Positions 4,801 through 61,796 of a stretch of DNA of 64,000 nt are shown piece after piece. The position numbers and the translations under genes are program-made. The notes below the pieces were generated by a model, which had not been told where the DNA came from, made no database searches, and worked only from the letters and a program-made list of their open reading frames with translations. This DNA comes from Geosiphon pyriformis uo1 (Eukaryota > Fungi > Glomeromycota): positions 310,001 through 374,000 of the forward strand of contig JAAOMT010000708.1 of NCBI GenBank assembly GCA_016748015.1. The letters are read 5' to 3'. The stretch's first letter is position 1. Each line of letters starts with the position of its first letter.

Positions 4801-7125
4801 TTTATTGATTAATATCATAGCTAAATTATAGATTATTTTGGTATTATATAAGTAATAATAAAGTTTATTAAAGCACTATTATATACTGTATTAAAAAGAG
4901 TTATTTTTTTTATTTTTTTAGAAATTAATAAAACATATTAATAGATTTAATAGCATATTTTTTTTTATAGAAATGTTAATCCAGTTGTATTCTTCTGAAA
5001 GCAATTTTTCACATGTTAAACAGAGTGTTTAATCTTATTTTTTGCTTTTTTTGGGATATTTAAATCATTTTTTGTAGCAGGCTTTGCAGTAATAATAAGT
5101 GTGATGCTCATATTTTTTTGAATATAAATAAGCTTTCATAAATAAAAGTTTTTTTTTGTAGTTTTTGTATTTAAGTAGAATATATACCACTTTTTTTTTG
5201 GTTCTTGTTTAAAATAATTGGCAATATTCTAATTACTGGTCTTTTTGAAAATTTTTTGTTCAGGTTGTTAATTCAATTGAATAATAATTAAGTAACATAT
5301 AAGTTTTAATAATAAATAGTTCTTTTTTCTTTTTAAATTCTAATAAAAAAACTTTTTCTAAATGTTTTTTGAAAATACTACAAATAGCAGATATTCAAAT
5401 ATATTGTTCTTGATATAAAATCTTTAATTCTTGAGGTTTTCAATTTAAATTTGCATTAGTTTTGAAAAACCAATTGTTTTTGATTAAAACTTAATATTAA
5501 AGTACATTAATAATTAAAACTTTGACTAAAATAATAATTCTATCAATTACAAATAAAAAATTGTCAATTTTTTTAATTAAATTTTTTTTATATTATTAAC
5601 AATAACAATGACTGTTTAAGCTAACTTGTTAATAGTTTATTTAAACTATTGTATCAATTGGTAAATAATAATACTTTCAGAAAATCCACTATTTAAGATT
5701 AATCAAATTGTTTTTTTTTAACTTTGGCTTTAATATATATAATTGTAATTGCTTTTTGTTCTGTAACTGTTGTATTGTTAAACAAAAATAATAATTTATT
5801 TGTTTTAAATTCAAATAAGAATATGTTTAATAGATTGGCATTTTTAGCAATTTTGGCTAATAAAATAATATGGCTGTTGTTAAAAAAATTTGTCTTGTTA
5901 TTGCAACTTTATTTTCAAAAAGTACAGTTTGTTAAAAATTTTGTTCTTTGAATATTATTAGATAACTGGATTGAATATAATAGTGTATAAATTTTTGTTA
6001 TGAATTGTTTCAAAAAATTAATTAATTATTAATTCTGTTATTATTTATTAAAAAGCAGTTTTATTATATAAACTGGTTTTCTTGTAAGTATTTAGTACTA
6101 TTAAATTGGTAGTAGCTGTTAATATTGTTGAATCTGTAAAAGTTGTTAGTATTATTGCTGTACTGGCTGTAAAACCAGTTAATATTATTTGTTTTAATAT
6201 TAAAATTTAAGTGAATAATATACTAAAATCAGAAATTAATAATAAAATTGCTATAGTTAAAAATAAAGTTAATTATTTTTTTGTTGCTAATCTCTTTATA
6301 TCTTTCTGCAATTTTGTTTCTAATATCTTAAAATTTTATAATAATAACAGTTTTAAGATTAATTGTTGAATAATAATAGATAGTTATTTTGGTTATATTG
6401 TTGAAATGACTGATATTTCTGTTAGTTAGTAAAATAATTTTTAATTTTTTTGGTAAGTTAATCAATTTTTTTTTTAGCTGCTGAATTGGTTTTTTTAATA
6501 GTAAAATTACAAATTTGGTTTGATTGGCTTCTTTTATAGTTATTTTATATGTTTTGATATATTAATTAATAATAACTAAATTTTTTAGAATATGTGGATA
6601 AATTTTCTTGATAAATTTATTCTTTAATTCAGCATAAATTAATCCAAAATTTGTGTATTAAAGTAATAATTATTAGTTTTTAATTGGTAAATTTATTGAA
6701 AAAGTTTGTTGAACTTTTCAAAATAGATTATAACAAATTTACTAGGTTTTGTTTAATGTTTTAAAACCAATTTTAAAGAGTAATCAAAATGTTGATATTT
6801 GTAAATTGCTTAAAAAAAGCATCTTTAAATGTTTGTCAAGTTTTTGGTAATATTTCTAAATTTCAAACTATTTATCAACAGTTTTTTATAGAAAATAAAA
6901 AATTACTTTTATTATTTTTATTAAAGCCTATCTATTTGTATTTTCTGTTTTTTTAACTTTATTTATCCATTTTTATAGACTAGTTTTAGCATTTTTTCCA
7001 GTAAATTTAAAAATTTTTATGATATAAATAGTTGTTATTTTTTGTTAATTTATTTTTTTTACTTTTTAAGTCTTTTATATAATTACTTGGATTTTTTGTT
7101 AAATAATCAAAAAAATTAGTACTGA
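925..7125 (-). mobile_element. Element K: very degenerate D-family Ty3/Gypsy LTR retrotransposon, 5'-truncated by element A, with internal RT/RNaseH deletion
   Basis: The reverse complement is colinear with element D: gag (~6000-7125), protease (~5400-5800), Cys-rich region, dUTPase (~4030-4450), integrase core/C-terminus (~2700-3620), ORF3 (~1890-2560), PPT and LTR. Confidence 0.85.
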
Positions 7126-9053
7126 TGTTACTTGAGTAGAAAAACCGATCCAAAATTAGAAAAAATGTGACCAGAATGTGACATAATACAGAATAGCATG
7201 CAATAACATTGAATAATGTGTTATAACTTAGGATAGCACAAGATAATGCATTATAATGTAGAATAACACAGAATAACATGTAATAACACTAGATAACATG
7301 TTATAATAGAGGACAACACAAAATAACATGTAATATCACCAGATAATGTGTTATAACATAGGATAACTGAGAATAACGTAGAAGAACAAAGCAATAACAG
7401 AAATAACAAAAGCAATAGTTAGCAATAATGATGTTATGGTTTAAGAATTTAGCAAAAGAATCATAAAAATAATATAAACTATTCAATCATAATATAGTGC
7501 AATAATAATCTTAGAAAGGTAATAATTAACATAGTAGCAAAATACCATCTCGTGATAGTGGCAAGCACCAGTTCACAATAGTAGCAAACACCAGATTGAA
7601 ATATTAAAAAGAAAGTATTACAATGTGTTTTTTTGTAGAACTACAAACATATATATATACAGTAGCTTTAATCTTAAAAAAAGTCAATCAAGTAATAAAA
7701 ATCATAACTTATCAAGCAATAGATATAATTTATCCAACAAACTCCACTTTAAATTGTACTTTTAAATTAAATATCCCAAGAAACTTTTAAATCAAAAAGA
7801 AATGAAAAAGAATATTTAAAACTGAATTATCACAATCCCAAAATAGTAAGAAACTCACTTGTGTTAATTATTAAATAAAACTATCATTCATCAGCTGAAT
7901 CTCTTGAAAAAATAATCTCTGATCAAGATTATTCACATTGTTACTAATTAATAAAAGTTTTATTGTGAGAATTAAGAAAAGTGCTAAAGATCATTAACAT
8001 TTTGTGTTTTTAGATTAGAAAAACACATCAAACAATTGCAAAGATAGCTTCAGAGAAGACTGCAGACAGTGGGTAGATTTCAGCTCAGCCTCTGAGAAGG
8101 AGTACATAAACACACACAACAATCAGAAATTGAGAAATAACTTATATCACAACATTAAAGAAAAAGTCTTTAGTATAACAAGTAGCATTATTACACAAAT
8201 AAAATTAAGAAACTCATGAGAGACTGATTGCAATTAAAATGGAATATTGGCAATTAAATATACCAAGAAAACCATCTCATAACAACAAAACAATCAGAAG
8301 CAATCTTGTAAAACCAAAAGAATGTATAAAAGCAAGTAGTTGTAAAAGAAAAAAGATAGACAGATAGATATAAACCACTAAACAAGAAACAAATATCTAT
8401 CACCCCTCCTCATTTATTATATTTCTATATTCATCTTCTGAAATAAATTAATTATCAAAGAAATCAGAATTATGAATTCATGTTCTCAAACTGTGTGGGA
8501 TTTACATGAATTAACCATTGTTTCATACCTTTGTTTTAGGACAGATGCTTTTAGCATAACCATCTTAGACTATTAACAATTTGGACCAATCACTCTTGAT
8601 CATGGCAATTGATAATACTAATTTATCTTTTTCTTTTCTTTCTTTTCCTTTCTTTCTTATTTTCTTTTGTGGAACAGCAACATAGTAAAATTGACTGTCT
8701 AAGAATAGACTTTGTGATAGCCTGGTAAAAGAGTAAGGCTCCTCCTAAGTTTTGGATATTAATGTTATCTTGTTAGCTTATCAGAAGGGCAAAAAGACAC
8801 CACCAAATCCTAATGACTGCACTCATTAGCTCAAAGAAAAAAGCTCATATTTATGGAAGATGTTGCAATTAATAAAAAATGAACTCTGTGCCTTATAATC
8901 AAAAAACTCAATGGATAAATTCACATCTAAAAATAGACTTTTAGAGACTGATAATTGAGACTAAGCCAACAGAATTACGCAGAAGACACATCACTAATAA
9001 TTGAGAGCACCAAATGTTACTATCTCCATTACCCACCAAGTTTATCCATAACA
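7126..9053 (+). repeat. 5' LTR of element A (interrupted by solo LTR F)
   Basis: Starts TGTTAC, ends ATAACA before TTTGG. Aligns to 54460-55524 once 7432-8288 is removed. Confidence 0.9.
7432..8284 (+). repeat. Solo LTR F (G-family LTR)
   Basis: Homologous to the reverse complement of 26206-27059. Termini TGTTA...ATAACA. Flanks ATGA (7428-7431) and ACAA (8285-8288) both derive from ACGA. Confidence 0.9.
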
Positions 9054-9055
9054 TT

Positions 9056-9071
9056 TGGTGCTCCTTGTAAG
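9056..9071 (+). promoter_or_regulatory. tRNA primer-binding site of element A
   Basis: TGGTGCTCCTTGTAAG, 2 nt after the LTR end. TGG is complementary to tRNA CCA. Confidence 0.8.
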
Positions 9072-9114
9072 ATTATAAATCCACAGAGACAAAGCACCCC
9101 AAAAATACACAAAA

Positions 9115-12100
9115 GTGGTGACTATTGGAACAGTAGGAAAAGACCATTCTCCATATGGAAGAGCACTATTTCAATACTTTTGAAAAGACTTAAGAATACC
9201 AGCAGAAACTGCTTATACAGAAAGTGATTTTTGTAACTATATTAACACAAAAATTGACTGCTTATTAGGCTGCACAACCAACACAGGAAGACTGGGAAAA
9301 CAAATCCATTAAAGCTTATTAGAGTATTCAACAGTCACAACTACCCAAGCAATCACTGAAACTCTGTGCATAATCAATACAGACATTAAATATTACGTGG
9401 CAAAACAATTTCCTTAAGTACAACAATCAGTGGAATTTGATCCTGAGGAATACGAAGACAAATCCAATAACCCTGGAACTGCCCAAGTCAAGTCCACAGT
9501 CAACAAGAAACTAAGATTTTTTTCTCCAACAACCCCATTATACTATCAGACACCCCAAAGTAGAATTGTATTCAACCCACCTCTGGAAACCCAGTCAAAA
9601 ACACCACACACTTCTGGAAATTCATACCTTTAGAATCAACATAGTTGGACCAAATCATTAGGAAAATATGGATTGTTGTTTGGAAATCTCTCCCCAACAC
9701 TTAACAAAACAGACGAAAATACATTAACATGGGAACTACTGCCAACCCAACCATTGACCAAATCATCAACCACCCCCTCTAAAGAAACAGCTATCCTCCA
9801 GCCCATTGGGAAAATTAACAAAGAGAAACAACCAGAATTAGCACCAGAAGAACACTCTAGCACACAAACACTAAACCCCCTGGCATCAATTAGTAAGACT
9901 TCATCTACTCACCAAATTATGGCTTACTGAGATATCACCAAATTAGAGAAATTCTTTGGTGAAGAAGATGACACATATATATAGATCACAGAAGCTGAGA
10001 AAGCCATCACCACCAACAATTAGGATAATGATAGGACTATTTAAATGTTGCCATTCTTTCTGACTAGAACCATAGACTCATAATATCAAAGCCTTGCAGA
10101 GAAACCAACCAACTTTGCCATCTTTAAACTTGTCTTTCCACAATATTTTTGTGACCCCAACACTTTCATCAGATTACAAAATCAGTTCAGTATTATAAAA
10201 CAAAAAGACCATGAAGCAGTAATCACTTATCTTGAACAATTCAACCAAATTTTTTGTCAAATCCAGACCATTGAAAGGAATTACTACACTGTGGCACAAA
10301 TTTTTAACCAATTCATCAAAGGATTAAAAAGCAGTCTCCTTTGATTTGTAAGACCCCACCATCCAACAAACCTACAAAAAGCAGTTACTTTTGCTCATGA
10401 CTTTGAGTCAGCAAAACAAGAGACTAACCATACTCAAGCCATTAATCTGGCTATTAATAGAACATCTGATATCAACACAAAAATAATTCAATTAAGTGAG
10501 AAATTAATTCACAAAATTGAGAAATTTTTAGCTGGTACTGTAGGACCCTACCAACTACCACAACAAAAGGATAGTAATAATACCAGATACCAAAAACAAC
10601 AGAATTGCCAACAACAACAACAACCTTGAAGATCCAATTCCCGCAATTGTTACTATTGCTAGAAACCTGAACACATCATCCAGAACTGCCATAAGAAAGT
10701 AATGAACCAAAACCAAAGAAATCAATATTAGCACCCAAGATATTCTTAAAACATAATATTCCAATACCTTATGTCTCAATATCAACCACCTCAATACTCA
10801 CAACAAATGCAATATACCCAGCAATTACCTCAGACCTACTACCAGTCTTCAAAGCCAATGACTCAAGCAGCACTCCAGCACCAAAGCCTTGTTAATAGCC
10901 AACTTAGACATCATGTGATTGATTACAACCAAGGATGAAAGAACTCTAACAACAATCAGAGGCCAACTAACAGTGTACTATTACAATCCCTAAATTGTAG
11001 TAATGCCCTGTCTTAACCAGCACCAACCAGATATCCTAACCAAGCCTCATATTTTGGTCTCACTGAAAATCAGAATTTTTATAGTTCTACATCTTTAGAA
11101 AGGAAGGATGTAGAAGAGACTTCCACCCCTTTAAGGCGAAATCAAATCAACAATACTATTTTACTCACTATCATTACCAAAGACACCACCCTTGCTGCCA
11201 TATTTTCCTTTAACATTGACTACCTGAACACCACTAGCCTTTTCAGTGGAGCTGCTATTAATCAAGATAAACCAATTATGGCTTTGTACACCAATGCTAG
11301 AGTTGAGAACATAGATATTAAGTTAATTCTAGACAGTGGTTCAGCAGGCAGTATAATAACAAAACAACTCATGGATCAATTAGATTACCAAATAGATCAT
11401 GCTGCAACTGCTCGAATTATCACTGCAGATGGCAATATCAAGATTCTTATTGGAGAAATCGATAATTTTCTTTTCGAGATCAATGGAATCCAAATTCCTA
11501 TTAAAGTCCTGGTCATGGAAGCCACGCAATATCAAGCCCTCATTGGAAATGACTGGTTGGCCAAAGCCCATGCCACTCTTGACTGGAACACACAGGAATT
11601 ACAGATCACCTTTAATGAACAACATGCCCAAGTCCCGGCTATGTGCAAACACTTTCAAGTTCAAAGCTCAAAGGAACCACTAATTGAATTTGAAGACACA
11701 ACACTACCACCAACCATAGAAATTTATCAGGTTTTGTGGGCAGATGATTTCCGAACAGAGTTACTTCCACCACCAACTTGGGAAGAAAAAAAAAAGGGAA
11801 AAGCAGAAGAAAAACTATAATCAGCACTTGCAGGCTATTTTACCTCAATTCAAGAAAGTCAATGTTATCAAATCCTGAAATTAAACTGTATCAACTATGG
11901 GAAAAAGTTATTCTTCATGAGTGTATGTATAGAAGATAATGAAGAATGGCCAACCACCACAAAATACTATTGCAGACCATGCATAATGGAAAGATTTGGA
12001 AAACCGAAATGACAATGCAAATAGGACAGTACACCATGCCTTGCCTGTGACAAGATCCTGCCAGATAAAGAATTCTGAAATAATGTACCTGGCAGAGGAA

Positions 12101-14120
12101 GAACATGTGACAAAGTGTGTCAATATACCATCTTGATCAATGATTGGATATGAAAAGGAAACCCAATCAAGGATGCCTGAAGATGAGCACTCAATCGATT
12201 GGATGGTTATTTGCATGATAAGCACAAAATATGGAGAATGGTCAATGCCAAAGCCAGAGGTGCCACACTCAGCGAAATATGAGAAATCAAAGAAAATCTA
12301 TTTGTACCTGAATATGATAGATCCAATTATCTTATTAAAGATTTCTTTATGGATGACTCAGATGCATTTCAGGACCATTACCAAGAATTGGTCCTGACTT
12401 GAGAAAAACAAGAACAAAGACTAGCTGACTTAAATACCAAACTGTGTGATCATTGTTTAATTTCTTGTCATTTCCAGTACTGCGACAAATGTGATTTCAT
12501 GTTTAATCCACCTCCAAGAATACTGTTCTCAATCACTGAACTACTTGAGCTTGAAGAAGAAAAGAAATTGATCATCAAGAACACATTATTTCAAAATCCA
12601 ACTGAGGAGACCAAAACAGAACAGTATCTTACATATCCCGACCTATCCAAAGAACTAAAGCTAAAATGGTACAGTGACAATGAAGAAAAAATTTGCCCCA
12701 AAAAAGCACATGACACTAATGCTAGTTTTGACCTATAATACTCTGGACAATCATCCATCATTATAGCTTCACATTCCCTTGTAAAAATAAATCTTAAGAT
12801 AATGTTAGAAATTCCTATTAGTACAATGGTACAAGTTGTTTTTCAATCTAGTCTACCCAAGAAAAGAATCGACATAAAAGAAGGAATTATCAATGCTGGT
12901 TACACAGGAAACATTATTGTAATGTTACAGAACAATTCAGACCAATCCTACAAAATAAAATTACAAGAAAAGATTGCCCAAGCTATCTTCCTACTCCTAG
13001 TCAAAATACTCCAATTAACTCTAGTAACAACTCAAGTAGAATTAGGTCTCACTGCCTGAGGAATTAACAAGTTTGAATCAAGTAAAAGAGGAAATATACC
13101 AATCAACTTCATGAAAAAAGACAGTGACCAGGTAGAACTTATCTACACTGACACAGTCATCTCTATTTGTCCTTACCAATAATATCTCCTCAAGGTGAAT
13201 TGAAAGATCCAAGATCAAGCCCTGTTATTTGAAGTCAATCCTGAAATCTGTTCTCTAGCTGATGTTGCTAACTTATATCTACCAGCCAAAGCCCATAAAC
13301 ACTTCAAAATCCCTATCCACAATCCCACAGAAGATGTGATTGAAATCCCCAAAGGAATTCTCATTGGTTCCATCTCACCAAACATTCAACATCCTGAAAA
13401 ACTCCAGTTCATTCCAGATTTCACACAGCTATTCCTATTTTGTAACATCACCTTACAAGTATAAAATTTGCCAAAAGAAAGTTACTTGTTTACACCAGAG
13501 GAGATCCATAAATTAAATTTAGGAAACTTAAGTACCCTATAACAAATGCAATTTAAAGTCCTTTTGAATCAGTATGCCAATGTCTTTGTCAGCAAAAATG
13601 AGTTTGGATATACTGACATCGTAAAGCATCAGATTGATACAGGAGATGCTCGATCTATTAAACAACAAGCTTACTGAGTACTCTTATCTGGTGACAATCT
13701 TATCAAACAAAAAGTCCAATAAATGTTCAACAACGGCCTGATCAAAGAATCATTAAGCCCTTGGTCCTCCCCAGTAGTCTTGGTCATCAAGAAAAATAGA
13801 AAGATGCAATTCTGCATAGATTACCAAAAACTAAATAGTATTATGCAAGGAGATAGTTATTCCATTTCTCTTATCTAAGAAATTCTGGACAATTTAGGGA
13901 AAAAAAAATGGTTCTCGTTATTAAATTTAGCAAGTGGTTACTGGCAAGTTGAAATGAACCCCAAAGACAAAGAAAAAACAGTATTCACTACTCGAGATGG
14001 AAACTTTGAGTTTAACATAATGCCTTTTAGACTTTGTAATATTCCTGCCACATTCCAGCACTTTATGGATATTGTATATAAAGAAATCCTATGGAAATCA
14101 GTTGTAATATATCTAGATGA
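9115..14120 (+). pseudogene. Element A gag-protease-Cys domain-dUTPase-RT (N-part), many nonsense mutations
   Basis: Capsid-like region ~9920-10450, protease LILDSGSAGS (ORF 11278), dUTPase ASFDL/GIINAGYTG/IAQ (12660-13085), RT ending at YLDD 14109-14120. Confidence 0.9.
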
Positions 14121-14991
14121 TGTTACTCATAGAAATATAAGGAATATATATTAGCATAGTTATTAACCAATCAGAAATAGATGTAGTAAAATGTGGAATT
14201 CCAGGATTCCTCTCAGGAATTGCAGGATTCCAAGAATTACAGAATTCTCACAAAGAATTGCAGAATTCCAGAATTCCAGGATTCTTCTCAAAAGAATTGC
14301 AAAATTCCAGGAATCTCAGGATTTCTGTTGTGAAGAATTGAGAAATTGAGGAATCTCAATTATGTATATATAGCAGTAGGATTAGAAGCTAAAAAAACAA
14401 ACCTCTCAGTTTAGATTTCATCTAAACAACTTTCCAAACCACAAATAAATAACTGTTTGTTATTTCAAATCTGCTGCCACTATCAACATAAAGTGTTGAT
14501 AGTAATTGATACTTAACCACACTGGAACAATAGCTCTTGATCACAGCTATTGACAGAATACTAACTTGCAAATTGCTTTGGCTTATTTATTTTCTTTCTT
14601 TATTTTCTTTTCTTTTCTTTATTTTTTGCTTTGATTTTATTGTTGTTTACTAACTCTATTGAAAATTAACATGTGGGGTACTGACGTCTGGATAAACGTG
14701 ACTGGTAAAAGACCCAAAAATAAGAGTAGAACACTCGATTGAGGATAGCTTACCAGGAAGAATACTGGCCATCAAGCTGAGAAAGAAATTGACAAAACTG
14801 TGGTTTTGGGAAGCTACAGATAAAACTATTACCATTGAATTTCTGTCCATTATACAAAAAACTCAACCAAACCCTTTGGATACAGACTTTTTAAACACCA
14901 ACCTTCAGATCACTATCAACTGCAATTAGATTTGAGCACCAAGTTACAGGTTTATTATTTAATCCAACACCAAAAATAGTCACTTGTAACA
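14121..14991 (+). repeat. 5' LTR of element B
   Basis: TGTTAC...GTAACA, direct repeat of 40537-41406, with a GGAATTCCAG-type tandem array at ~14195-14360. Confidence 0.95.
14361..14374 (+). promoter_or_regulatory. Putative LTR TATA box (TATGTATATATAGC)
   Basis: The same motif occurs at the equivalent position in both B LTRs, both C LTRs and H, directly after the U3 repeat array. Confidence 0.55.
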
Positions 14992-15050
14992 TTTGGTGCT
15001 TCCTGTAAGATATAATTCTACAAAGAACCAACACCAACACAAATCTAAAA

Positions 15051-18000
15051 GTGGCAGAATTAGAAAACATAGAAGCAAACCATCTAGAATTTGCAAAATT
15101 CTTATTTTAACACTACTGTCAACATTTGGGATTAAATCACAACCACATATCAGTGAAATCAGCTTTCAATTTCTACATCAACGAAAGAATTGCCTATCTG
15201 TTAGGAACACCAGTAAATATTGAATTGGCAAGAGAAGTCTTTTATAGTGAATTAATTCAAAATACCAACCTGCCAACAAATCACAATTTTGCCTCCATCA
15301 TCATGAAAATCAACAAAGAAATTGAACACCACAAACAGCAAAGATACATCATTACTTACACAAGCAAAGGCAAAGAAAAACTACAAACACCAGCAGTAAT
15401 ACTCAAAAGAATACAACTACCTACTTGGAAGAAAACAAGAGTTGAGTCCCTAACTAATCCATCATACTACTATACACCTAGAAGTGCCATTAATATTATA
15501 TCTACTGGCACAGCCACATCAAACACGACATCAGCATTTGGATGATTTTCATTTCAAAGTAAACAAAGAAAAGCAGAGTTATTAGGACCATATGGCACAT
15601 ATTTTGAAGGATTTAACTCGTGATTATCAATGTCATCAGGACTCCGATCACCATCGCTTTCCCCAGATTTCAGAATTTCTGATCTATGGGAAGTAACGGA
15701 ATCAGAAGAAAAGGAAGAAGAAGAAACTAAAGATCAAGAATTCACTTACCAGAACCCAATTGCTGAAAACCTAGAATTTGAAACCCCGAATCTTCAAACC
15801 CAGCAAAATCTAAACCCAGAAAATCCAGAAATCAAAATTTCAAATATTCAGACACTGCCAACTCAGGATAATCAAAACTCTGATTTAATAAATCAACAAA
15901 ACTTACCTCCAGTAATCATCATCAATTAACCACTGATTAATCCAATAGCTGAACCCATACAACTGCCATTTCAACTACCACCCCAACAACCCATGCAACA
16001 ACAACCACTTCAATTACCATCACAACAACCCAACTTAGATCCAATGGCTTATCCACCAATTGCAAAACTTGACAATTTTACCAGCGAAGAGGACAACGCC
16101 CAAATATGGCTCAATGATGTTGAAAAAGCCATAGTGGCCAATAGATGGAACAACAGTAAAGCTCTTTAAGCGATTTCCTATTTTCTCAAAAATACTGCCA
16201 ACTCGTAGTATCAGAGCCTAGCCACCAAACCACAAATCTTCAATGAGTTCAAAACAGAATTCTTGAGATACTTTAGTAATAACAATAGTACCAATCACTT
16301 AACCAACACATTTACTACCATCAAACAAGGAGACACAGAAGCAGTTACTACTTACTTGGGACGCTTCCATAGAAATCTGCGCCAAATTCAGGCAATTCAA
16401 GCTGATTATTTTACAGCACCACAGATCTTGAATCAGTTCATTAGAGGCTTGTGCAGTAGCATTCTTCAGCAAGTATGTCCAATGCATTCAGTTGACCTTC
16501 CAACCACTGTCACCCACGCCAAAGATTTTGAAGCAGCTGAGCTAGAAGCCAATTACACCCAAGCTGTAAATTTAGTGATGAATGGATCATCTGACTTGAA
16601 TTCCAAACTAAAACAATTCAGTGATACAATTAATCAGAAACTAGAGGGATACTTAGTTGACAATTATGCAATCTATCAACCACCACAACGACGCAATAAT
16701 TCAAGAAACACGAATTGTTTCCAAAATCAGCCACATCCATCAACATTATCATCATCATCATTACCCAATCAGTTATGGCAGCCAGAAACATGTATTTGCC
16801 ACAACTGTGGTAAACAAAATCACATTAGAGCCAACTGTCAATTTTATAGCAATAATCCATGATCGGAAAATCAATATTAAAAACCCGATCACAGATTTTA
16901 GACTCAGAATCACTACTCAAATCAAGACCAATATTAAACCACTTACCTGCCAATGACGCAACAACCAATCTATCAACTGCCAGTATATTAACCTCCAATT
17001 TATCAATCACAGCCACTGGTAATTTATCAGCCACAGCCCCAAATAATTTATCAGCCCCAACAACCAATTCAAACACCACTCCAAAATCCCATTCAAATGA
17101 CATCAGGAAACCCAAGACCTAGAATCACTCAAAACTGGAGATTGGCGATGGTTGTTCATTAACTGATTCTCAGCTCTTTTTACTAACTATCAGGCTTTTG
17201 ACAGTGGAATTTGGGTACTGGTTCCACCCAAAACCCGAATTCCCAGAACTATTTAAGTTTCCTGGTTACCCCAAAAGATGCCATCACCAACAACTTGGAA
17301 TTCAACCCACCTCAAACAACACTCACCAACAATATTCCACCAGCAATGATCACCAAAAATGAATCTCTCACTGCCATCTTTCCTTTTGAATTGGAGGAAA
17401 CCATCAACCCACTTTTGTTCAGTAAAGCAGTACTTAAAGAGAAACCCATCACTGTGATGTACACTGATATGAAAGTTGATGGTCACTTCATCAAACTGAT
17501 TCTAGATAGTAGATCAGCTGACAGCATCATCACAAGACAACTCATGGATCAATTAGGTTGCCAAGTTGATTGTGCTGCCAGCACCAGGATTATTATAGCT
17601 GATGGAGTGACCAAAACACCCATTGGAGAGATTGATGATTTCCCCATAAAAGTCAATGGCATTATAGTACCAATCAAAGTACTTGTCATGGAAGCCACTC
17701 AATACCAAGCACTTGTTGGGAATGACTGGCTGTCCAAAACTAACGTGACTTTAGATTGAAACACCCAAGAGCTTCAGCTTAGCCAGAACAGTTGACACAC
17801 ACGGGTACCAGCCACGTGTGGCCACTTCAAGCCCATTACCACACCATCAACACCACTTATCAAATTTAAGAAAGAAAAAGTGAAACCCACTTGGGAAGCA
17901 TACCAAGTCTCGTGGGCCGACGTCGACCACAACAAACTGCTACCAATACTCGTCTGTGACAACAATAACAACAAAAAGGAAAAACAAAGAGAAGAACCTA

Positions 18001-20092: not shown

Positions 20093-20288
20093 NNNNNNNN
20101 NNNNNNNNNNNNNNNNNNNNNNNNNNNNNNNNNNNNNNNNNNNNNNNNNNNNNNNNNNNNNNNNNNNNNNNNNNNNNNNNNNNNNNNNNNNNNNNNNNNN
20201 NNNNNNNNNNNNNNNNNNNNNNNNNNNNNNNNNNNNNNNNNNNNNNNNNNNNNNNNNNNNNNNNNNNNNNNNNNNNNNNNNNNNNNNN
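20093..20288. other. Assembly gap (196 N)
   Basis: Run of N. A second gap lies at 22031-22050. Confidence 1.
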
Positions 20289-20809: not shown

Positions 20810-20838
20810 TGTTGTTGTGGCGGGTGAGTTGGTGATTT

Positions 20839-36628: not shown

Positions 36629-36632
36629 CTGG

Positions 36633-48300: not shown

Positions 48301-48592
48301 AGTAGCTTATGCCAGTAGAAGCTTAAGTCCAGCTGAAAAAAACTATGGAACTCCAGCACTGGAACACTTAGCAATCTATTGGGCAGTTATAAAATGGAGA
48401 AAATACTTGAGCCAAAAGTTTGAAATATACACGGATTACAAGGAACTGACTTCAATTCAGAAACAAAAATTTGCAAACAATTGCCATGCCAGATGAAAAA
48501 TAGAACTTTCACCATTTAACTATACAGTACATTATAAAAAAGGAAAAAATAATGGAAATGCTGACGGATTGTCATGAATGAGACAAATCTAA
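42375..48592 (+). pseudogene. Element C gag-pol (gag, PR, Cys domain, dUTPase, RT, RH)
   Basis: ORFs 43347, 44691, 46128 (NAGFDL, IIDAGYVG), 46863, 47853 and 48164 (TDASG). Confidence 0.9.
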
Positions 48593-48622
48593 AAACATTT
48601 CAACCCAAAAATATAATAAAAA

Positions 48623-49999: not shown

Positions 50000-50058
50000 A
50001 ATCAAACAATCAGAAAGTATATAAAGACACAGTATACATGACAAAAGCAATCAAGAAA

Positions 50059-50694
50059 ATGGAAATACCAGATTATATTCACACTATAGCTCAACAACTG
50101 TTTCAGGCCTTAAGTTAACAACAGTTAGACATGGAAATTATCATTAACAACCAAACAATTTGCTATTGAAACACTAAAAAAAAGACAAAGAACACACCAT
50201 ATTAGCGGGTACCAAAAAATGATAAAAACTGGTCAGATAACATAATAGAAAAAGTAAAGAACATATTTGGGAAAATACTTATTATAGCACCAACAGAAGA
50301 ACTTACAAAAAAGAATTAGAAGCAATGGACAGAACAACTTCCAATATCATACTGTTACTACCAGTTAGGTCGAAAGTTGAATATTCAGGAGTTGTATATC
50401 AACAAATTCAAGAGAATATTTAACCAAGACATAATACAACAAATTGAAGAATTTATTGGAAAGAAAACAAATTCAACACTACATGTTAGAACAATATACT
50501 GACTACACAACATATTTTGAAACTATTCAGAAATACTGTTACACTCTGACATGGAAATCATAACCATTAACCAATGGAGAAGAATAAACAATACACAAGT
50601 AAAAAACATGAGAAACAGAGTCAAACAAACAATACTTGAAAAAAAAGTATTAGAATTAATTCAAAACAAAGATTTTGACAGAGCTCAATATTAA
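50059..50694 (+). pseudogene. Element C ORF3
   Basis: Homologous to B ORF3, ends DFDRAQY* at the PPT. TATATAAA at 50018. Confidence 0.7.
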
Positions 50695-51530
50695 AAAGGA
50701 GGAGATAATATTACTCATAGAAAAAGAAAACAAATATAGAAAAATAGAAGACCAATAGGAGAATAGTAGTTAGCACGTGAGCACATTGCTCAGCAATGTG
50801 GAGCAATGTCAGAAATCACAGCATATCACTCAACAATGTGGAGCAATGTTAAGAAAATACAGCACATTGCTTGAGAAATTATAGCACATTGCTTGGGAAT
50901 ATGAGCAATTTTATAAAACCCAAATTATGTATATATAGTGGTAGCATTAGAAGTAAAAAAGACAGACCTCTTAGTTTAGATTTGATCTAAGCAACCTTTT
51001 ATTTACAAATATCAATAAATAATTATTTATCATCTTAATCTACTTTCTACTATCAACATGAAATGTTGATAGTAAGTGATACTTAACCACACGAGAACAA
51101 TAGCTCTTGATTACAGCTATTGATGGGATACTAACTTACAATTGCTTTTATTTATTTCTTTATTTTTTTCTTTTATTTTCTTTGTTTTGTCATTTTGTTG
51201 GTTTTACTAAACTGATTAAAAATTAAGTGCTGAGTTATTAACGTCAAGGATAGTCTGGTAAAAGACTCCAAAGGAAGGGTATAGAAATTGAGAATTTAAG
51301 GATAGCTTACTAGAAGGACATTTCTGTCAAGATTACCAGCCACCATGCTGAGAAAGAAATTTGATAGAATTGCTATTCTGGGAGGCTATGGAAAAGACAA
51401 CACTTGAATCTCTGTTCATTATACAAAGGACTCTACAAAAAATTTTCAGATATCAACACCAAAATACCAACCCAGCACCAAGTTACAGATTTGTTATTTG
51501 ACTTGAGACCCCCAATAATCATCTGTAACA

Positions 51531-52249
51531 CCAGATTAAAACTCAACTCCAATAAATGCTTCTTTGAAAAAACTGAGTTAAAGTTTTTAGGACATATAAT
51601 TGGCAAAGATGAAGTTAAACCCAATCCAGATAAGATCTGAAAAGTCAAGGATTTTCCAGCTCCAATCAACCTCAGAGAATTATGAGAATTTCTAGGATTG
51701 ACAGGCTATTATTATCAATTTGTCAAAGGTTTCTTGAACATTGCAAAACCACTCCATCATTTGTTGTCCAAATATGTACCATACTTGTGGAAGGAAGATC
51801 AACAGAAAGTATTTGACTATCTTAAGCAGTGTTTGATCACATCTCCCATTCTGATTTACTCAGATTTTACTAAATAGTTTATTGTCGCTACAAACATCTT
51901 GAAAAATGCTCTAGAAGCAGTATTATCTCAGATAGGACCAGACAATAGAGAACATCCAGTTGTCTACACCAGTCGTAGCATGAGCCCAGCAGAAAAAAAT
52001 TATAGCACAACAGATTTGGAATGCCTCACCATTTATTGGGCCATACAGACTTGAAAACATTACCTTAGTCAACCATTTGACTTATATACTGATCATAAAG
52101 GACTTATTTGGTTACTCAATAATCCACAATTAAAAGGAAAATATGTGAGATGGAGTACTTATCTGTAACAATTTCCACTCAAAGTCTATTACAAGAAAGA
52201 ATCCAAGAACACCAATGCCAACAGTTTGTCGAGGATGTCACAAACCTAA
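51531..52249 (+). pseudogene. Element A RT C-terminus and RNase H
   Basis: LKLNSNKCFFEKTELKFLGH..., ends NANSLSRMSQT*. Confidence 0.88.
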
Positions 52250-52259
52250 TTTCAAACCC

Positions 52260-53627
52260 ATGAACACACTCACTTATCAATGACTACATTAGTACTTATT
52301 GACACTACGTTTCAAGGAGATACTATCTTAACAAAAATAAAGTATCATATGAAAACAAGCCCAAAATTATTTTATTCAAGACAACCAACTATATCAATGA
52401 GAACGTTGAAACTGCTCCACCTCACAATGAGTTATAAAGAACAGTGAAAAGAAAACTATATTACATAATATGCATTTTGATCTAACCACAAAACACTTTA
52501 ACAAGGATGCTACCCTCAAAAGAACACTAAATTTATATTATTGGCCAACAATATACAAAAACATTTTCGAATACATGCTCAATTGTAACACATGTTAGTG
52601 AAAAGGAGGAGCAAGATCAAGAGAACCACTTCAACCCAATCCAGTTGGAAATTCATTTGATAGAATTGGGATCAATTTGGTTGGACCTCTCTCAATTACA
52701 TCCCAAAGAAATCACTATATTACTGTAGCTGTAGACTATCTTACAAAATGGCCAGAAGCCAGAGCAATCCAAGTGGCCAATGCCAAAACAGTAGCCAAAT
52801 TTGTGCATCAAGACTTAATTTGCCAACATGGATGCCTGAAAGAATTATTATCTGATTAGGGAACACATTTTGTTAATAATATGCTAACTGAACTAAGCTA
52901 ATAGTTTGGAATAAAACAACCCTTATTGTCACCATACCACCCACAAATGAACAGACTGGTAGAACAATTTAACTGAACACTGTGTGAAGCACTAGCAAAA
53001 ATAAGTCATAAAAACAAACAAGAATGGAACTTATTCATACCTTCTGTACTCTTTGCATACCAAACATTGAAACAAAATACAACTCAGTTCACATCCTTCA
53101 AACTAGTCTATGGAAGAAAAGCTACATTATTGATTGAACAAGTGATACTATCATACCCAACAAAAACAATCAATGAAAAAAATTTTGAAGCTACCTTATC
53201 CTGAAGAACGTACCAGCTAATGAAAACGTTGAAAGGCAATCAAAAAACAGCAGCTGACAATATTAGTCACACTCAAGAATGACAAAAAGAAAGACATAAT
53301 AACTGTCTACCAGAACAACCAATGGAATTCAAGATTGGAGACCAGATACTGTTACATCATACAAAAGTGGAGAAACAGTGGAGTAGAAAGTTTGACCCAA
53401 AGTGGGACAGTCTATTCCACATATACAAAGCATTAGGAAATGGAGCTTACAAATTACAATTGGAAAACAGGATTTTAAAGAAAATAGCACATGGAAATTG
53501 GTTAAAAATTTATCATGCAAAACAAGAATTATCGTCATCAGTACTTCAACTAGGAACACAAATTTCATTAATCAGACTAGAAGATATATCACAAGATCTG
53601 GAACCAATTATTGTCATCAAAACATAG
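52260..53627 (+). pseudogene. Element A stand-alone integrase
   Basis: ATG at 52260, VDYLTKWPEA, ORF 53322 SH3-like C-terminus. Confidence 0.85.
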
Positions 53628-53707
53628 ACAACATACAGCAAATTAAAGTGGGGAATTTAAATATATATAGCATCCAAAAAGCAGCAAGAAACAATAGAAA
53701 TTTCAAC

Positions 53708-54445
53708 ATAGATCTTTTAGATCAAATTTTAAAATTATCTAAACAATTATTTGAAACAATTCAAAAATTGACATCTCAAATAGAAATTATAATTGATAGA
53801 AAAAAAATAAGATATAGAGATAAGGAGAAAAAAGGGATGGGCAAAAGTTCAACTAGAATTAACCATTCCCATTCCTACACCCTGCCCAAAAAAAGAATTT
53901 TACAAAAAAGAATTAATTTGTCTCGGGCGGGACTTGAAGAAAGTGTGGAGGAATGAGAATTATTTTATAAAAGAAGATACTTGGTCCCCAAGCTAGAAGA
54001 AATAAAAGAAGTTTTAGCTTGTGGGACCAAACTCCCCAAAACAGGGGAGTGGACACCTGACAATGCCCAGGAATAGAAAAAAAGACTTCCTCCAGCATAT
54101 TAGTTCTACAAAATTGGTGAACAACTAAATTTGAAAACACTATATGGAAACCTCAGCCAGAAAACTTTCAACAAAGAAGCAATGCAACAAGTAGAAAAAT
54201 TTGTAGGAAGAAGCAACCTGACCCTATACTACAAAGCAGCATACTGATTATATGCTGCTTTCCAACATTGTCCAAATGTATTGTTGTATGGATCTATAAA
54301 AATGATAACAGTTAACAACATAGAACAAATTACTAATCGACAGTTTGAAGACTTACAAAAAACAATACTTGATGCAACCATTGAATATTACATAAACAAA
54401 GACATAGAAACAGATACATACAATTTCATAGGAGCTTAATACTAA
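53708..54445 (+). pseudogene. Element A ORF3
   Basis: (M)DLLDQILKLSKQLF...FYKIGEQL...KAAY(R)LYAAF..., ending at the PPT. Confidence 0.6.
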
Positions 54446-54459
54446 AAGAAGAGGGATAA

Positions 54460-55524
54460 TATTACCTGAGTAGAAAAACCGATCTGAAGTTAAAAAAAAC
54501 ATGACCAGAATGTGACATAATACAGAATAGCATACAATAATGTTGGATAATGCATTATAACTTAGGATAACACAGGATAATGCATTATAATATAGAATAA
54601 CACAGAATAACATGTAATAACACCAGATAATGTGTTATAATAGAGGACAACACAAAATAACATGTAATAACACCAGTGTTATAACATAGGATAACTGGGA
54701 ATAATGTAGAAAAACAAAGTAATAACAGAAATAAAAAAAGCAATAGTTAGCAATAACAAAACAATCAGAAGCAATCCTGTAAAACCAAAAGAATGTATAA
54801 AAGTAAGTAGTTGTAGAAGAAAAAAAACAGACAGATAGATATGAACTACTAGACAAGAAACAAATATCCATCACTCCTCCTCATTTATTATATTTTCATA
54901 TTCATCTTCTAAAATAAATCAATTATTAAAAAAATCAGAATCACGAATTCATGTTTTCAAACTGGGTGAGATTTATGTGAATTAACTATTGTTTCATATT
55001 TTTGTTTTAGGACAAATGCTCTTAATATAACCATCTTGGACTATTAATAATTTGGATTAATTGCTCTTGATCATGATGATTGATGATACTAATTTATCTT
55101 TTTCTTTTTTTTCTTTTTCTTTCTTTCTTATTTTCTTTTGTGGAGTGACAACATAGTAAAATTGGCTGTTTGGAAATAGACTTTGTGATAGCTTGGTAAA
55201 AGAGGAAAGCTCCTTCTAGGTTTTGGATATTAACGTTATTTTGTTAGCTTACCAGAAAGGCAAAAAAACACCACCAGACCCTAATAACTGTGCTTGTTAG
55301 CTTGGAGAAGAAAGCTCACATTTACAGAAGATATTGCAATCAACAAAAAATGAACTCTGTGTCTTATAATCAAAAAACTTAACAGGTAAATTCACATCCA
55401 AAAATAGATCTTCAAAGACTGATAATTGAGACTAAGCTAACAGAATTATGTGGAAGATACATTACCAATAATTGAGAGCACTAAATGCTACCATTTCTAT
55501 TACTCACCAAATTTACTTGTAATA
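54460..55524 (+). repeat. 3' LTR of element A
   Basis: Direct repeat of 7126-9053 minus F, preceded by PPT AAAAGAAGAGGG. Confidence 0.9.
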
Positions 55525-55920
55525 ATGTATATAGCTCAAAATACTACTCAACAATTTTACTGATATCTTTGCCAATAAAAATAAATTTGGCAAAACTAAT
55601 ATTATTTAGCATTAAATCAAAACTGAAGATATAATGCCAATCAAACAAAAAATATACAAAGTACTACCTGCCAGTCATAAAATTATTTAACAAGAAATCA
55701 ATTAAATGTTAGACAATGGGTTAATTCAATTATCAATGAGTTCATAATTATTACCAGTAGTATTTATTCAGAAAAAGAATAAAAAAATCTGTTTTTGTGT
55801 AAATTACAGAAAACTTAACAGTATTACTTGTAAAAACAACTATTCAACTTCATAGATTCAGAAATTATTCAATGTTTTTAAAGAGAAAAAATAGTTTTTA
55901 ATATTAAACTTAGATAATGA

Positions 55921-56857
55921 TATTACTTATAGAATATAGGAATTAAATATTAGTACATAAATTAGCTAATCAGAATAAATATAGTAAAAGTGGAATTCCA
56001 AGATTCCTCTTAGAGGAATTGCAGGATTCCAGAAATTTCAGGATTCTTGTATGAGAAATTGCAGGATTCCAGAATTCTAGAATTTCTCTTAAAAGAATTG
56101 CAAAATTCCAGAATTCTAGAATTCCTCTTAAAGGAATTGCAAAATTCCAGAAATTCCAGGATTCCTGGTATAAAAAATTGAAAAATTGAGGAATTTTAAT
56201 TATGTATATATAGCAGTAATATCAGAAGCTAGAAAATTAGTCAAGTAGACTCCCAAAGTCAATTAGATTCAAAATTAAGAAGACTGAGAGTCAGTAGAAC
56301 TTTTAGAGTCAATTAAACTCACAGGTCATAATTATTAAATACTCTTCTTTCAAAAAATAAAATACTATAACTTGAAGTAAAATTACTCCCATATTAATAA
56401 AATTATCCATTATCCTTAAATCCATGTTATTATCCACTACTTAACCTGCTGGCACAATAGCTCTTGATCATGGCTATTAACAGGACACTATTTCTTATTT
56501 TATTTTTTTTATTTTATTTTATTTTATTTTTTTTTGTTGTTTACTAAATTAATTAAAAGAGAAAAAGCACTAAATTATTGACGTCAAGGATTGTTTGGTA
56601 AAAAACCCCTGCAAATGGGTAGAGTATGTAAAGGAATTACAGATTACTTATCAGAGAAGTACTGGTCATCAAGCTGAAAAAAGAAATTGACAGAATTACA
56701 ATTCTGGAAAGCTATGGATAAACAACTATTGAATCTCTGTCTATTATACAAAAGACTCAACCAAAATCTTCAGAAACCAACACCCATCATTTATCAATTG
56801 AGCACCAAGTTATGGATTTGTTATTTAATTTGAGACCCCAAATAATCACCTGTAATA
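55921..56857 (+). repeat. Solo LTR H (B-related) inserted in E's RT LDLDSGY motif
   Basis: TATTAC...TGTAATA termini and the same GGAATT array as B. Flanks ATGA/GTGG. RT resumes at 56858. Confidence 0.88.
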
Positions 56858-58887
56858 GTGGTTACTAACAAGTAGCTATAAATTCAGCAGACAAAAAAAA
56901 AACAGTATTTATTACCAGAAAAAGAAATTTCGAATTTGATGTTATGCTATTTAGTTTAATCAATGCTTTAGCTACCTTCTAATAGCTTATGGAAATTATC
57001 TATACTGAATTATTATAAAAATCAGTAATAATCTACTTAAATAACACTAATATGTTCTTTAAGACATTTAACAATTATTTCCATTATTTCTAACAAGTAT
57101 TTGAAAGATTAAGAAGAGCTAGACTAAAATTGAATGTTATTAAATGCTTTTTTAAAAAAACTAAACTCAAGTTTTTGGAATATGTTGTAAGCAAAAATAA
57201 CATAAAAACAGATCCAAACAAGATTGAAATAATCAAAAACTTTTAGTATTAACAAATCTTACAGAATTAAGAGCATTTTTGAAATTTACTAAATACTATT
57301 ATTATTTTATCCAAAATTTCTCCAAACTGGCTCAACTATTTTACCAGTTTTAAGCAAAAAATATTAAATATAAATAGACTAAAACTCAGCAAAAAGCTTT
57401 TAACATCTTGAAAAAAAAGCTTATTTAAGCTTTAGTATTGATTTATTTGGATTACAATAAGTCATTTATCATTACTACTAATACATTTAACCAAGTATTG
57501 GGAGCTATATTGTCACAAAAAAGAGCCAACAAATAAAAACATTTAATGGCATATGCCAACCAAAATTTAAGTCCAGCTGAAAAGAATTATAGAATTTCAG
57601 CATTAGAACATTTAGCTATCTATTGGATTGTCATTAAATAAAAAAAATACTTAAACCAAAAATTTGATGTATATATAGATTACAAAGAATTGACATCAAT
57701 TCAGAAATAAAAATTTGGAAACAATTATTATACAAAATAAAAAATAAAATTATTATAAAAAAGGAAAAAAAAATAGAAATACTAATGATTTATTACAAAT
57801 AAAACAAATCTAAAAACATTTCAACTTAAAAATATAACAAAAAATAAACACACAAAAATATCAACAACTCTAATATTATATCAATACTCAATAGTTTAAG
57901 AAGAAATTATCTTAAAAAAAAACAAAACAACATAAAACAACAATTAAAATATTTTATCACTTATCAAAATATATTATATTAAAAAAACAGAAAAAATTCA
58001 GACTAACTACTTAGAGTAATCACAAAACCAGAGAAAAAAACTGTTCAATATACACTTAAATTTAACAGCAAGACATTTTCATAAAAAAACAACTATGAAA
58101 AGAATCAAAAAAAAATACTACTGGCCATTTATATATCCAGATATTATCTAATATATTTAAAATTGTAATGTTTATTAGAAAAAAAGAGAAACAAAATCCA
58201 GTAAACTACTAAAACCAATTAAAGTAGAACAACTATTTAATTGAATTAGAATTAACTTAGTTGGATTATTAACAATAATCAGGAAAGAGAATCAATTTAT
58301 AACAGTAATCATAAACTATCTTACAAAATAGCCAGAAGCAAAAACAATTCAAAGAACAGACACAGAATTTGTAGCCAAATTTATATACCAAAATTTGATT
58401 TGTTAATATAAATGTTCAAAAAAATTGTTATTAGACCAAAAAACTCACTTTGTGAATAAAACATTAATAAAATTAAGTCAAAGATTTAGAATTAAAAGAC
58501 CATTATTATTACTATATTATTCACAAACCAATGACTTAATTGAAAAGTTTGACAGAATATTGTATAAAGTAATAACCAAAATCAGTTAAGAAAACTAAGA
58601 TAAATAAGATTTGTTTATATTATCAATATTATTTGCTTATTAAACAATGAAACAAGATACTACATAAGCAATATCATTTGAATTAGTTTATGATAAAACA
58701 GCCATAATACCAGTTGAGATAGATATCAATACATATCTAACTAAACTAATAACAGAAACTAATTTCCAAGAAACATTGCTAAAAAGAATATATAACTTAA
58801 TAGAAACTTTAAAAAATAAAAAATAAAAAGCAGTTGATAATATACAAAAGTTACAAGCAAAACAAAAAACAACAACATAATAATCAG

Positions 58888-59825
58888 TGTTATCAGTAAA
58901 ATTTTAGCTATTAATTAGGTTGAAATTATCCTCATAATTCCTATTATTAATTAGCATATATTATTATCATTTTAATTAATAGTATTTAATCAAATTAGCA
59001 ATTATTATCATTTAATCAATAATCCGATTTGTACCATAGAAATTAAGATGATCAAATTACACAATACTTTGAACCATTTAACATAATCAAAATTCGCCGA
59101 AATTAATGAAAATTGGCCGAAATAATTAATAGTTCAGTGAAATAACTTGTAGTTTGCTGAAATGTATTTTTAGTTTACTAAAATTATAGCAAAAAGAAAA
59201 GTTCAAGTTCAAAGACTAGTATTACAACAAATTGTATAAAAAAAGAGCTATTTTCTTTAAAAAAATATATCTTCTCATAGTATCTTATCATAGTATTTTA
59301 CTTTAGATATCTTAATTAGAACAAATCACCTTTTACATATCTCAAATAAAAATTAAATATTTGAAAACCAAATTCTTTAAATTATTATACTTGAAATTCC
59401 CTCAAACACAACTAACATTTTGAAATTGATTAGCTACCAATTTCAGTAATCTGTTAATAACTTCAGACTTAGATAAAGAACGTTTCTCTTGATAAAATTC
59501 TATTTTTTTTACATTTTTTTTCTTTTTTTATCATAATCATTAAGGTAGCCTACAGACAAGATTCCTGTAAAAGAGTTAACTTTTACAGCAAAGTAACTAC
59601 ACATTTTTGTAAGCTTCTAGACAAGCAATTCCTGGAAAAAAGTTAATATTTACTACTGGCATAGAATTGGCCATTCTACTTATAAGCTTAGCAGTTCAAA
59701 TTATAAGAGATAATTTGAAAATAAATTCAGTTATTGGAGGTTCAACTGCTTTCAGAAAACGTGAAATTAACAACAGACAAACATTAACAACATTCAAAAA
59801 AAGAGACCAAAAACCTTTAATAACA
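58888..59825 (+). repeat. Solo LTR I (D-family) inserted in E's integrase
   Basis: TGTTA...TAACA, homologous to 35647-36628. Flanks TCAG/CCAG. Confidence 0.9.
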
Positions 59826-61628
59826 CCAGTTATCAGATAAACCAATCGAATTTAGGATTGAAAACAAAGTATTCTTATATTATATCAAAGAAAAAAAACA
59901 ATAGAATAGAAAATTTGACTCCAAATAAAACAGACTATTTCACATTAAAAAAATTTTAAAAAATAGAGTTTATAAATTAAGATAAAACAACAAAATCTTA
60001 GCTAAAGCAACACATAAAAATTAACTAAAATCATATTACAATATAGCATTATTATTTATCAATAATACTTCATAATTAAAAATACAATAAATACTAATCC
60101 AACCAAATAAGATTTCATAAGATCTAAAACTAATCATAATCATTAACACAAACATGTCAAATTAATTTACAAAAACAGTATATAAAAAACCAATAGATAT
60201 AACAAAAGCAAACAAAAAGATAGAAATTACTGACAATATTTACTCACTTAAACAACAACTATTACAACTTATTTAACATCAAAAATTAAGTCTAAAAGTT
60301 ATCATTAACAAACAAACTATCCAATATAAAAACAAAAAAATAATTCAAAAATTCCAAAAAAAAGAACAATATCTCAGATATTATATTTCTAAAAATCCAG
60401 TAAACAAAATAATAGGAAAAGTGGAAAAAATATTGGAAATTTCAAAGATAGTAATACCAAATAAAAAAATAATACTAAAAAATTAGAACCAATAAACACA
60501 ACAAATTCCCAAAAACTTTTGTTATTATTAGTTAGAACAAAAACTGAATATTTAAAACTTATATACAGATAAGACCAAAAGAATATTTAATATAACTATA
60601 TTACAACAAATTAAACAAGTTATAAAAAAAACAATTTATTCACATATGCAAAAGCCATCTACTAACTACAAATAAGATTTTAAGACTGACCAAAAATATT
60701 ACTACATCCAATAATAAATACAGTAACTATTAATCAATTGGAAAAATTAACTAATACTTAATTCAATAAATTGCAAACCAAAATTACAAAAGCAATTCTT
60801 GAGAAAGAAGTTATAAAGCTAATTCAAGAGAGAGATTTAAGAAATTTAAGAGATTTTAACAAAGCTTCATATTAAAAAGAAAGAATAATATTATTTATAA
60901 AAATTAGAAATTATAGACAGTAAAAAAAAAATTCCAGAATTCTTAAAAAATTGCAGGATTTCAAGATTTTTTTCAAGAAATTGCAGAATACCAGAATTTT
61001 TTTTAAAAGAATTAAAAAATTTCAAAGAATCTTATATAACATAAATTATGCATATATATAAAAAGTTTTAGAAGCAGAAAAAATATATTTAATAGAGTTT
61101 AAAACAATAATACCTCTTTTTTCAAAAGATAGTTTTCTATAATTTAAAATAAAATTACATTAATATTAATAAAATATTCAATTATCATTAAATCCATATT
61201 ATTATTACTTGATTAAAAAATTATTAATCTATTTTACACTATCAACATAGAGTGTTGATAGAATCTAATACTTAATTACATTGAACCATAGCTCTTAATT
61301 ACAGTTATTGACAGGATACTAATTTTTTTTTTTTTGTTTCATTTTTTTGTTGTTTACCAATTGATTAAAAAAATCAAATACAGAGTATTTGATATTAAGA
61401 ATAGTCTGGTAAAAAACCTGAAAACAAAAGTAGAAAACTTAAAAATAGCTTATCAAAAGAGCATAATTGCCAAAAAAAAAATTCACAGAAGAAATTATCA
61501 ATTAAATCTCTGTTTATTATATAAAAGCCTCAACCAAAATCTTTAAAAATTATCATCATTTTTAGCTATTAAACATCAAGTTATAGGTTTATTATTTGTT
61601 CTAACATCTTAAATAATTATTTGTAATA

Positions 61629-61796
61629 GTGTTTTGGTATTTTTTCTATAATAATTATTCTAGTGATAGCTATATAATTTACTTAATAACCTAATTGATT
61701 CATAAACTGATTTGTAATTATGTTGTCTGTTAATCTATTGTTAAGTATTAATTTAATGTTTATTTATCTTACTTTATTATTAATATATATTATCAT
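61629..61796 (-). pseudogene. Aspartic protease relic of an older element (host of E and J)
   Basis: The reverse complement reads ..INIKLILNNRLTDNIITNQFMNQLGY*VNYIAITRII.., an eroded IKLILDSGSAGSIIT.QLMDQLG. Confidence 0.75.

Follow-up and report, generated by a model that had tools for sequence, protein, structure and literature searches.

The nested long terminal repeat (LTR) retrotransposons in a 64,000-nucleotide stretch of the Geosiphon pyriformis uo1 genome (contig JAAOMT010000708.1, positions 310,001 to 374,000; hereafter the window) are flanked by 4-bp target-site duplications (TSDs), and in four of the seven complete pairs a central CG is attested. The pattern is real and exceeds both the regional background and a plain rule for a pyrimidine-purine (YR) step at the centre. 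Probably, the integrase of these elements has an intrinsic and strong, perhaps not absolute, preference for NCGN targets. The original prediction, made from the sequence alone, had gone further and held that all insertions are centred on CpG; this stands for the four pairs, while the remaining three (B, H and I) are only compatible with it and a rough model of the counts allows a share of about 40-100%.

The window is 30.7% GC, with CpG at 0.30 of expectation, and self-alignment resolves it almost wholly into nested LTR retrotransposons, lettered A to L below (position 1 is the first letter of the stretch). The base of the stack is formed by the old, AT-eroded elements J, K and L (15-21% GC). 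A holds the solo LTR F as well as B and C, B holds D, and D holds G, while K holds the solo LTRs H and I. In the G. pyriformis genome as a whole, LTRs make up 41.2% (PMC11952901).

Four-base duplications and their centres

Nineteen four-base flanks were counted, all adjoining TG/TA...CA/TA LTR ends set by self-alignment. They represent 12 insertion events, seven of which (F, B, D, G, C, H and I) retain both copies.

7428..7431: F left TSD, ATGA; the second LTR of A, which is uninterrupted, has ACAA there
8285..8288: F right TSD, ACAA; with the left copy attests central C and G
14117..14120: B left TSD, ATGA; in YLDD of the reverse transcriptase (RT) of A; sisters ACAA, ATAA, ATGA, ATGA, ATAA
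41407..41410: B right TSD, ATGA; CG origin compatible, unproven
19567..19570: D left TSD, CCAG; empty site present in two contigs of run X1
36629..36632: D right TSD, CTGG; C and G attested
19871..19874: G left TSD, TCGC; CG intact
27060..27063: G right TSD, TCGC; CG intact
41485..41488: C left TSD, CTGG; at Gly of the RT motif AGLKL of A
51531..51534: C right TSD, CCAG; C and G attested
55917..55920: H left TSD, ATGA; from LTR self-alignment
56858..56861: H right TSD, GTGG; five of five sister elements have T at position 2
58884..58887: I left TSD, TCAG; from LTR self-alignment
59826..59829: I right TSD, CCAG; sisters TTAA, CCAA, CTGT, CAAA, CAAA; CG origin compatible, unproven
7122..7125: A unpaired left flank, CTGA; unmatched
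55525..55528: A unpaired right flank, ATGT; start of the truncated pol of K
61629..61632: K unpaired right flank, GTGT; decayed protease region
61793..61796: unpaired flank of L (old, minus-strand element), TCAT
921..924: unpaired flank of J (old, minus-strand element), TTAG; DNA 16% GC with no CpG left, uninformative
36429..36432: ACGT in the 3' LTR of D; in one run X1 contig another D-family LTR starts here, with flank ACAT

All 19 flanks read exactly as originally described. The accompanying count of 18 of 19 flanks with a CG, TG or CA centre is correct in its letters; since the flanks stem from 12 events, it becomes 11 of 12. The five single flanks contribute three TG centres, one CA and one TA. 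The duplication length likewise holds: in the 4-bp register none of the seven pairs contains a transversion, and the copies differ by transitions only. Registers of 3, 5 and 6 bp gave at least one transversion in every pair and were rejected. Furthermore, removal of an insert together with four bases rejoins the host reading frames, as in YLDD at B and AGLKL at C. The B insertion lies exactly at the YLDD catalytic motif of the RT of A, with C just 78 bases beyond in the same gene. No wider palindromic motif is evident by eye in eight sites. A gap of 196 N (20093-20288) lies between the two flanks of G; the LTR of D continues across G, which supports a single insertion despite the gap.

Both central bases are attested in F (TG/CA), D (CA/TG) and C (TG/CA), whose mixed copies had already been taken to reflect an ancestral CG, and the youngest element, G, keeps CG intact on both sides, as also noted earlier. 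Among the LTR pairs, patterns that attest both bases occur in only 63 of 3941 dinucleotide columns (1.6%), which gives P=2e-6 for four of seven; when only YR columns are compared (7.0%), the value is P=7e-4. With the coding DNA of G as the target pool, in which CG makes up 15% of YR steps, the values are P=4e-5 for all steps and P=0.012 for YR steps only. Counted by event, 11 of 12 centres of CG, TG or CA have P~1.4e-8 against the region background of 15.7%.

Some evidence comes from other copies. Run X1 carries this DNA and may be its source, and it thus adds other copies rather than an independent sample. One of its contigs joins the LTR of D at 36430, plus two letters (AT), to an LTR start (35647), so that the flank reads ACAT where the window has ACGT. 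With this junction, five of eight centres are proven CG (P=8e-5 to 0.003 under a rule for YR alone). Contig alignment over 17.5 kb of the window gave few junction rows, and over 59 bp at the end of the G-family LTR 288 contigs aligned, 19 of them partial. At the B site, where both copies are TG, A has replaced the G of the second catalytic Asp codon in three of five sister elements, a change expected of a CpG. In a rough mixture model with estimated decay rates, the CG share is 0.77-1.0, with lower bounds of about 0.8 against background.

Several observations weigh against a strict CG rule. CG is not proven for B and H (TG/TG) or for I (CA/CA): at the H site five of five sister elements have T, and H may be a true TG target. 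The LTR of I retains six CpGs, and at its site the sister elements split into TA, CA, TG, AA and AA; H and I could be true TG/CA targets. CG is kept in only two of the 14 paired flanks, the sample is small (12 window events plus one), and the same model, with its estimated decay rates, lowers the bounds for the CG share to 0.38-0.61 when the alternatives are YR steps. Among the rows listed for the G-family LTR end, 12 pooled partial contigs give a weak flank majority of G-T-G-T (agreement 0.46) and one two-contig row reads ACAA; the pooled majority is T rather than C, which fits a decayed CG and a TG/CA preference equally.

Distant relatives add to these points. They were drawn from 80 metagenome loci and 78 prokaryote-genome loci, and those of at least 2.5 kb among L071-L158 were self-aligned. 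Alignment to LTR ends next to the primer-binding site fixed the 3' flanks of three of the metagenome relatives, GTAG (L086), CTAC (L121) and CTGT (L125), and the one-sided flank of a fourth was fixed by eye as CCAG (L084). All four, taken as 4-bp flanks from one side only, are YR-centred and none is CG, on contigs that may be collapsed repeats; L121 and L125 are non-CG despite LTRs that are 98-99% alike. These flanks hint that a CG rule may hold for this branch rather than for the wider lineage. The one-sided flanks of L077, L080, L102, L151 and others were left out, as their LTR ends were not fixable. No family member with both outer flanks was present among these self-aligned loci, the best 15 of 70 viral-contig loci showed no host flanks upon self-alignment, and the D-family LTR-end motif had no match in metagenome contigs. 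One of the loci, L156, contains a distant nested element (36% identity) with a 5-bp CTGTG duplication. The Gypsy-type integrases of L151, L152, L153 and L156 lie on contigs filed in prokaryotic metagenome-assembled genomes, likely as eukaryotic contamination.

CpG decay and the nesting of elements

The elements differ in age, as seen in the similarity of their LTRs:

7126..55524, + strand: element A; LTRs 7126-9053 and 54459-55524, 85.7% alike; host of F, B and C
14121..41406, + strand: element B; LTRs 91.6% alike; holds D and G
41489..51530, + strand: element C; LTRs 91.8% alike
19571..36628, + strand: element D; LTRs 94.7% alike; G lies within its 5' LTR
19875..27059, - strand: element G, the youngest; 218 bp of LTR 97.2% alike; CpG observed/expected 0.69
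7432..8284, + strand: solo LTR F; G-like family, 89% to the LTR of G; within the 5' LTR of A
55921..56857, + strand: solo LTR H; within the RT of the old element K
58888..59825, + strand: solo LTR I; D-like family; within the integrase of K

Element A is rearranged, because both of its LTRs are kept, yet its flanks CTGA (7122) and ATGT (55525) do not match and the hosts on the two sides differ. The mismatched sides point to recombination between copies or to an adjacent deletion, and the LTR-based age of A may be unreliable.

CpG density climbs with youth, from 0.5 per kb in J through 4.0 in A, 4.9 in C, 6.2 in B and 10.9 in D to 25.8 in G. Between paired LTRs, 82 of the 129 columns (64%) with C followed by G disagree, compared with 17-26% when another base follows, the CpG class being ascertained upward. 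The later decay of CpG that had been proposed is thereby borne out, and the excess change at C before G is the signature that would be expected of CpG methylation. Non-CpG C-to-T change is also frequent in these pairs. C-to-T and G-to-A changes, which are not confined to CpG but occur in all contexts, have brought the old elements (1-7125 and 59826-64000) down to 15-21% GC.

The density gradient would bear on where new copies land. D holds 39% of the present CpGs in 17% of the older DNA, and B and C together hold 67% in 43%; a plain CpG preference would thus favour young elements about 1.5- to 2.3-fold. Such a preference would equally favour unmethylated genes, which retain CpGs. CpG selection had initially been offered as an explanation of the extreme nesting. 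The argument is valid but its effect small: the bias would contribute to the nesting, yet it is insufficient as the sole cause, because it is only about twofold and genes with CpGs would also be favoured.

The integrase and competing explanations

The window elements are non-chromodomain Ty3/gypsy (Metaviridae) LTR retrotransposons with a dUTPase. Their open reading frames (ORFs) follow the Ty3/gypsy order of gag, protease, RT, RNase H and integrase (PF03732, PF13650, PF00078, PF17917, PF17921), with a dUTPase (PF00692) between protease and RT. This arrangement recurs in four window elements (18771-19589, 22014-23267, 30610-32121 and 46050-46742); the dUTPase was not matched in loci L071-L153, many of which stop short of its region. 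Paired TG...CA LTRs bound A, B, C, D and G, with TTTGGTG behind the 5' LTRs and a purine tract ahead of the 3' LTRs. No chromodomain matched among 24 window ORFs, which separates these elements from chromoviruses. The best 10 named integrase matches are all labelled Geosiphon pyriformis (76-84% identity), and the named RT relatives are from Dentiscutata and Rhizophagus (49-56% identity).

Integrases of Ty3/gypsy elements usually lie inside the Pol polyprotein. Here, a separate ORF with a Met of its own encodes the integrase behind the stop that closes RT-RNase H (in G, 20872-20839); intact in this clade, this ORF has about 400 residues. A stop ends RT-RNase H in the window copies G, B, D, A and C, and likewise in all 24 loci, out of 60 given, in which the RNase H end was found, with a spacing of -125 to +547 nt. 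The separate integrase ORF is a trait of the lineage and no reason for excluding it from Ty3/gypsy. In G, which carries gag, protease, dUTPase, RT-RNase H and this integrase ORF, the latter is interrupted by the assembly gap. A 2908-nt contig of run X2, a run whose type was guessed as DNA, tracks G (22969-27060) on the + strand, opposite gag-pol. It leaves out a number of GT...AG segments whose donors are of fungal type (for example 23202>23325, 24340>24507 and 25660>25813), the pattern that splicing of an antisense G-family transcript would produce.

Of the 16 loci read, 14 have an integrase that stops a few tens of residues past the GPY/F motif, the other two being unreadable to the motif. 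Ahead of the zinc finger, D and most relatives show Y..L...P...Y/F....Y, a YPYY-like motif recognized by eye rather than by a profile score. The nearest solved structures to the family profile are the integrases of Ty3 and prototype foamy virus (PFV). For one related integrase, P0199, the named Atlas clusters are headed by GIN1 (0.95), a gene derived from Ginger1, which is tied with other integrase clusters and serves as a lead only.

We infer that this integrase is the cause of the CG centres. It would cut four bases apart around a central CpG, and the lineage may have narrowed the flexible YR step of 4-bp integrases to CG by base readout. After insertion, the host would likely methylate the repeat, and each duplicated CG would then decay independently to TG, CA or TA, giving rise to mixed pairs. 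As young elements are the richest in CpG, new copies would land there about twice as often as expected from length, which may in turn promote nesting.

The best-surviving alternative, which we regard as rather unlikely, is that the integrase wants only a flexible central YR step, the CG excess resulting from small numbers and CpG-rich young hosts. Retroviruses with 4-bp TSDs, namely PFV, Moloney murine leukaemia virus (MoMLV), porcine endogenous retrovirus (PERV) and xenotropic murine leukaemia virus-related virus (XMRV), enrich a central YR step by 63% on average (PMC4422553). The four flanks of the relatives agree with such a step, and given YR, the 11 of 12 events without a TA centre have only P=0.02-0.07. 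The proven CG centres are nevertheless unlikely under this rule, whether four of seven or, with the additional junction, five of eight (P=7e-4 to 0.012), and none of the seven pairs has a TA centre, although TA accounts for about one third of the YR steps of the region.

A further explanation, in our view improbable, is that methylated CpG is recognized by the integrase itself or by a host partner, so that insertions are directed to silenced repeats rather than to genes. All seven paired insertions and the additional junction lie within other retrotransposons, and the DNA of the window bears the signature of CpG decay. Work by Kitamura in 1992 reportedly described an influence of methylated CpG on the integration of retroviruses in vitro. 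The window consists entirely of repeats, so avoidance of genes cannot show in it, and the integrase of intact relatives lacks a chromodomain. A polarity between the two sides would be expected if the target C were deaminated in the single-strand gap; no such polarity was seen, left CA with right TG occurring in one of three mixed pairs. Moreover, Ginger1 transposons demonstrate that a CG-centred target requires no argument from methylation. In Rhizophagus irregularis, methylation is weak at 60.3% of CpGs; most transposon families carry CG methylation, whereas most genes show little or none (10.1101/2021.03.30.436303). In its fullest form, to which we give little credence, the chromodomain-free separate integrase would read methylated CpG directly and the silencing mark would serve as the landing signal; new insertions would accumulate in the youngest of the silenced elements and leave genes untouched, and they would fuel the growth in LTR content of Geosiphon-like genomes until the targets are lost to deamination. 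If methylation were read, this would amount to a chromodomain-free route to targeting silenced DNA.

Chance, or boundaries picked to fit, is a highly improbable source of the pattern and is largely refuted: the first boundaries were placed by eye in degraded AT-rich DNA and one pair spans an assembly gap, but LTR-pair alignment and the rejoining host frames fix the boundaries independently, and only the 4-bp register is free of transversions (P~1e-8).

Relation to known target preferences

Such a target choice was initially not known to be described for this group. No CG-centred TSD for LTR retrotransposons, nor any TSDs of Glomeromycotina gypsy elements, were found in the literature searched, whose coverage left out most subscription journals and Repbase reports. 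The available text of the reports on Ylt1 (PMC3248453, PMC5014426) and of those on DAM-bearing elements holds nothing on target centres. A CG-centred 4-bp target is, however, known in Ginger1 (PMC2836005), and the rule is best read as new among LTR retrotransposons and known from Ginger1.

Other integrases with 4-bp TSDs provide partial parallels. PFV, MoMLV, PERV and XMRV prefer targets with a flexible YR step exactly in the middle, a preference common to the elements here; their enrichment is mild (63% over random) and, in the available text of the report, not described as CG-specific (PMC4422553). The gypsy group of Drosophila shares the 4-bp TSD and has sequence-specific palindromic targets, with ATAT and TATA/TRYA described for the group (PMC3276498) and CGCG for the ZAM subgroup (PMC5408687); the target centres are TA, AT/RY or GC, and none is CG.

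The closest parallel in the target itself is Ginger1, where the TSDs of 112 Hydra elements are CCGG (75%) or CCGT/ACGG (24%) (Bao, Kapitonov, Jurka 2010, PMC2836005). Ginger1 elements have TGTNR ends and a Gypsy-type integrase with YPYY, H2C2, DDE and GPY/F motifs, and YPYY is common to Ginger1 and a few Gypsy groups, among them Athila/Tat, Cer1, Gypsy-1_RO and DGLT-A1 (PMC2836005). The window elements resemble Ginger1 in the 4-bp TSD, which has a CG centre in four of the seven pairs, and in the Gypsy-type integrase, and by eye they appear to have its YPYY-like motif. They share with those Gypsy groups the non-chromodomain Ty3/gypsy layout and, again by eye, apparently the YPYY-like motif before the zinc finger; a CG-centred target rule for YPYY-bearing Ty3/gypsy lineages was not found in the literature searched. 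Ginger1 elements, known from animals, move by cut-and-paste, are bounded by terminal inverted repeats of 40-270 bp and encode only a transposase, with no gag or RT, whereas the elements described here have direct LTRs and a full gag-pol, including protease, dUTPase and RT. In addition, the outer TSD positions vary here (A, C, G or T), and CCGG fits D and C but not F and G.

Several consequences would follow from a CpG-biased integrase in this lineage. Mismatched TG/CA flanks escape tools that demand identical TSDs, and each duplication, through its two copies, documents how CpG has decayed. A CpG-biased integrase that is compact and encoded on its own would offer a simple system for studying base readout at the central step and any influence of methylation on it. 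Finally, a CG-centred target would tie a fungal LTR lineage to Ginger1 by both target rule and integrase motif, a link relevant to identifying the Gypsy lineage that stands closest to Ginger1.

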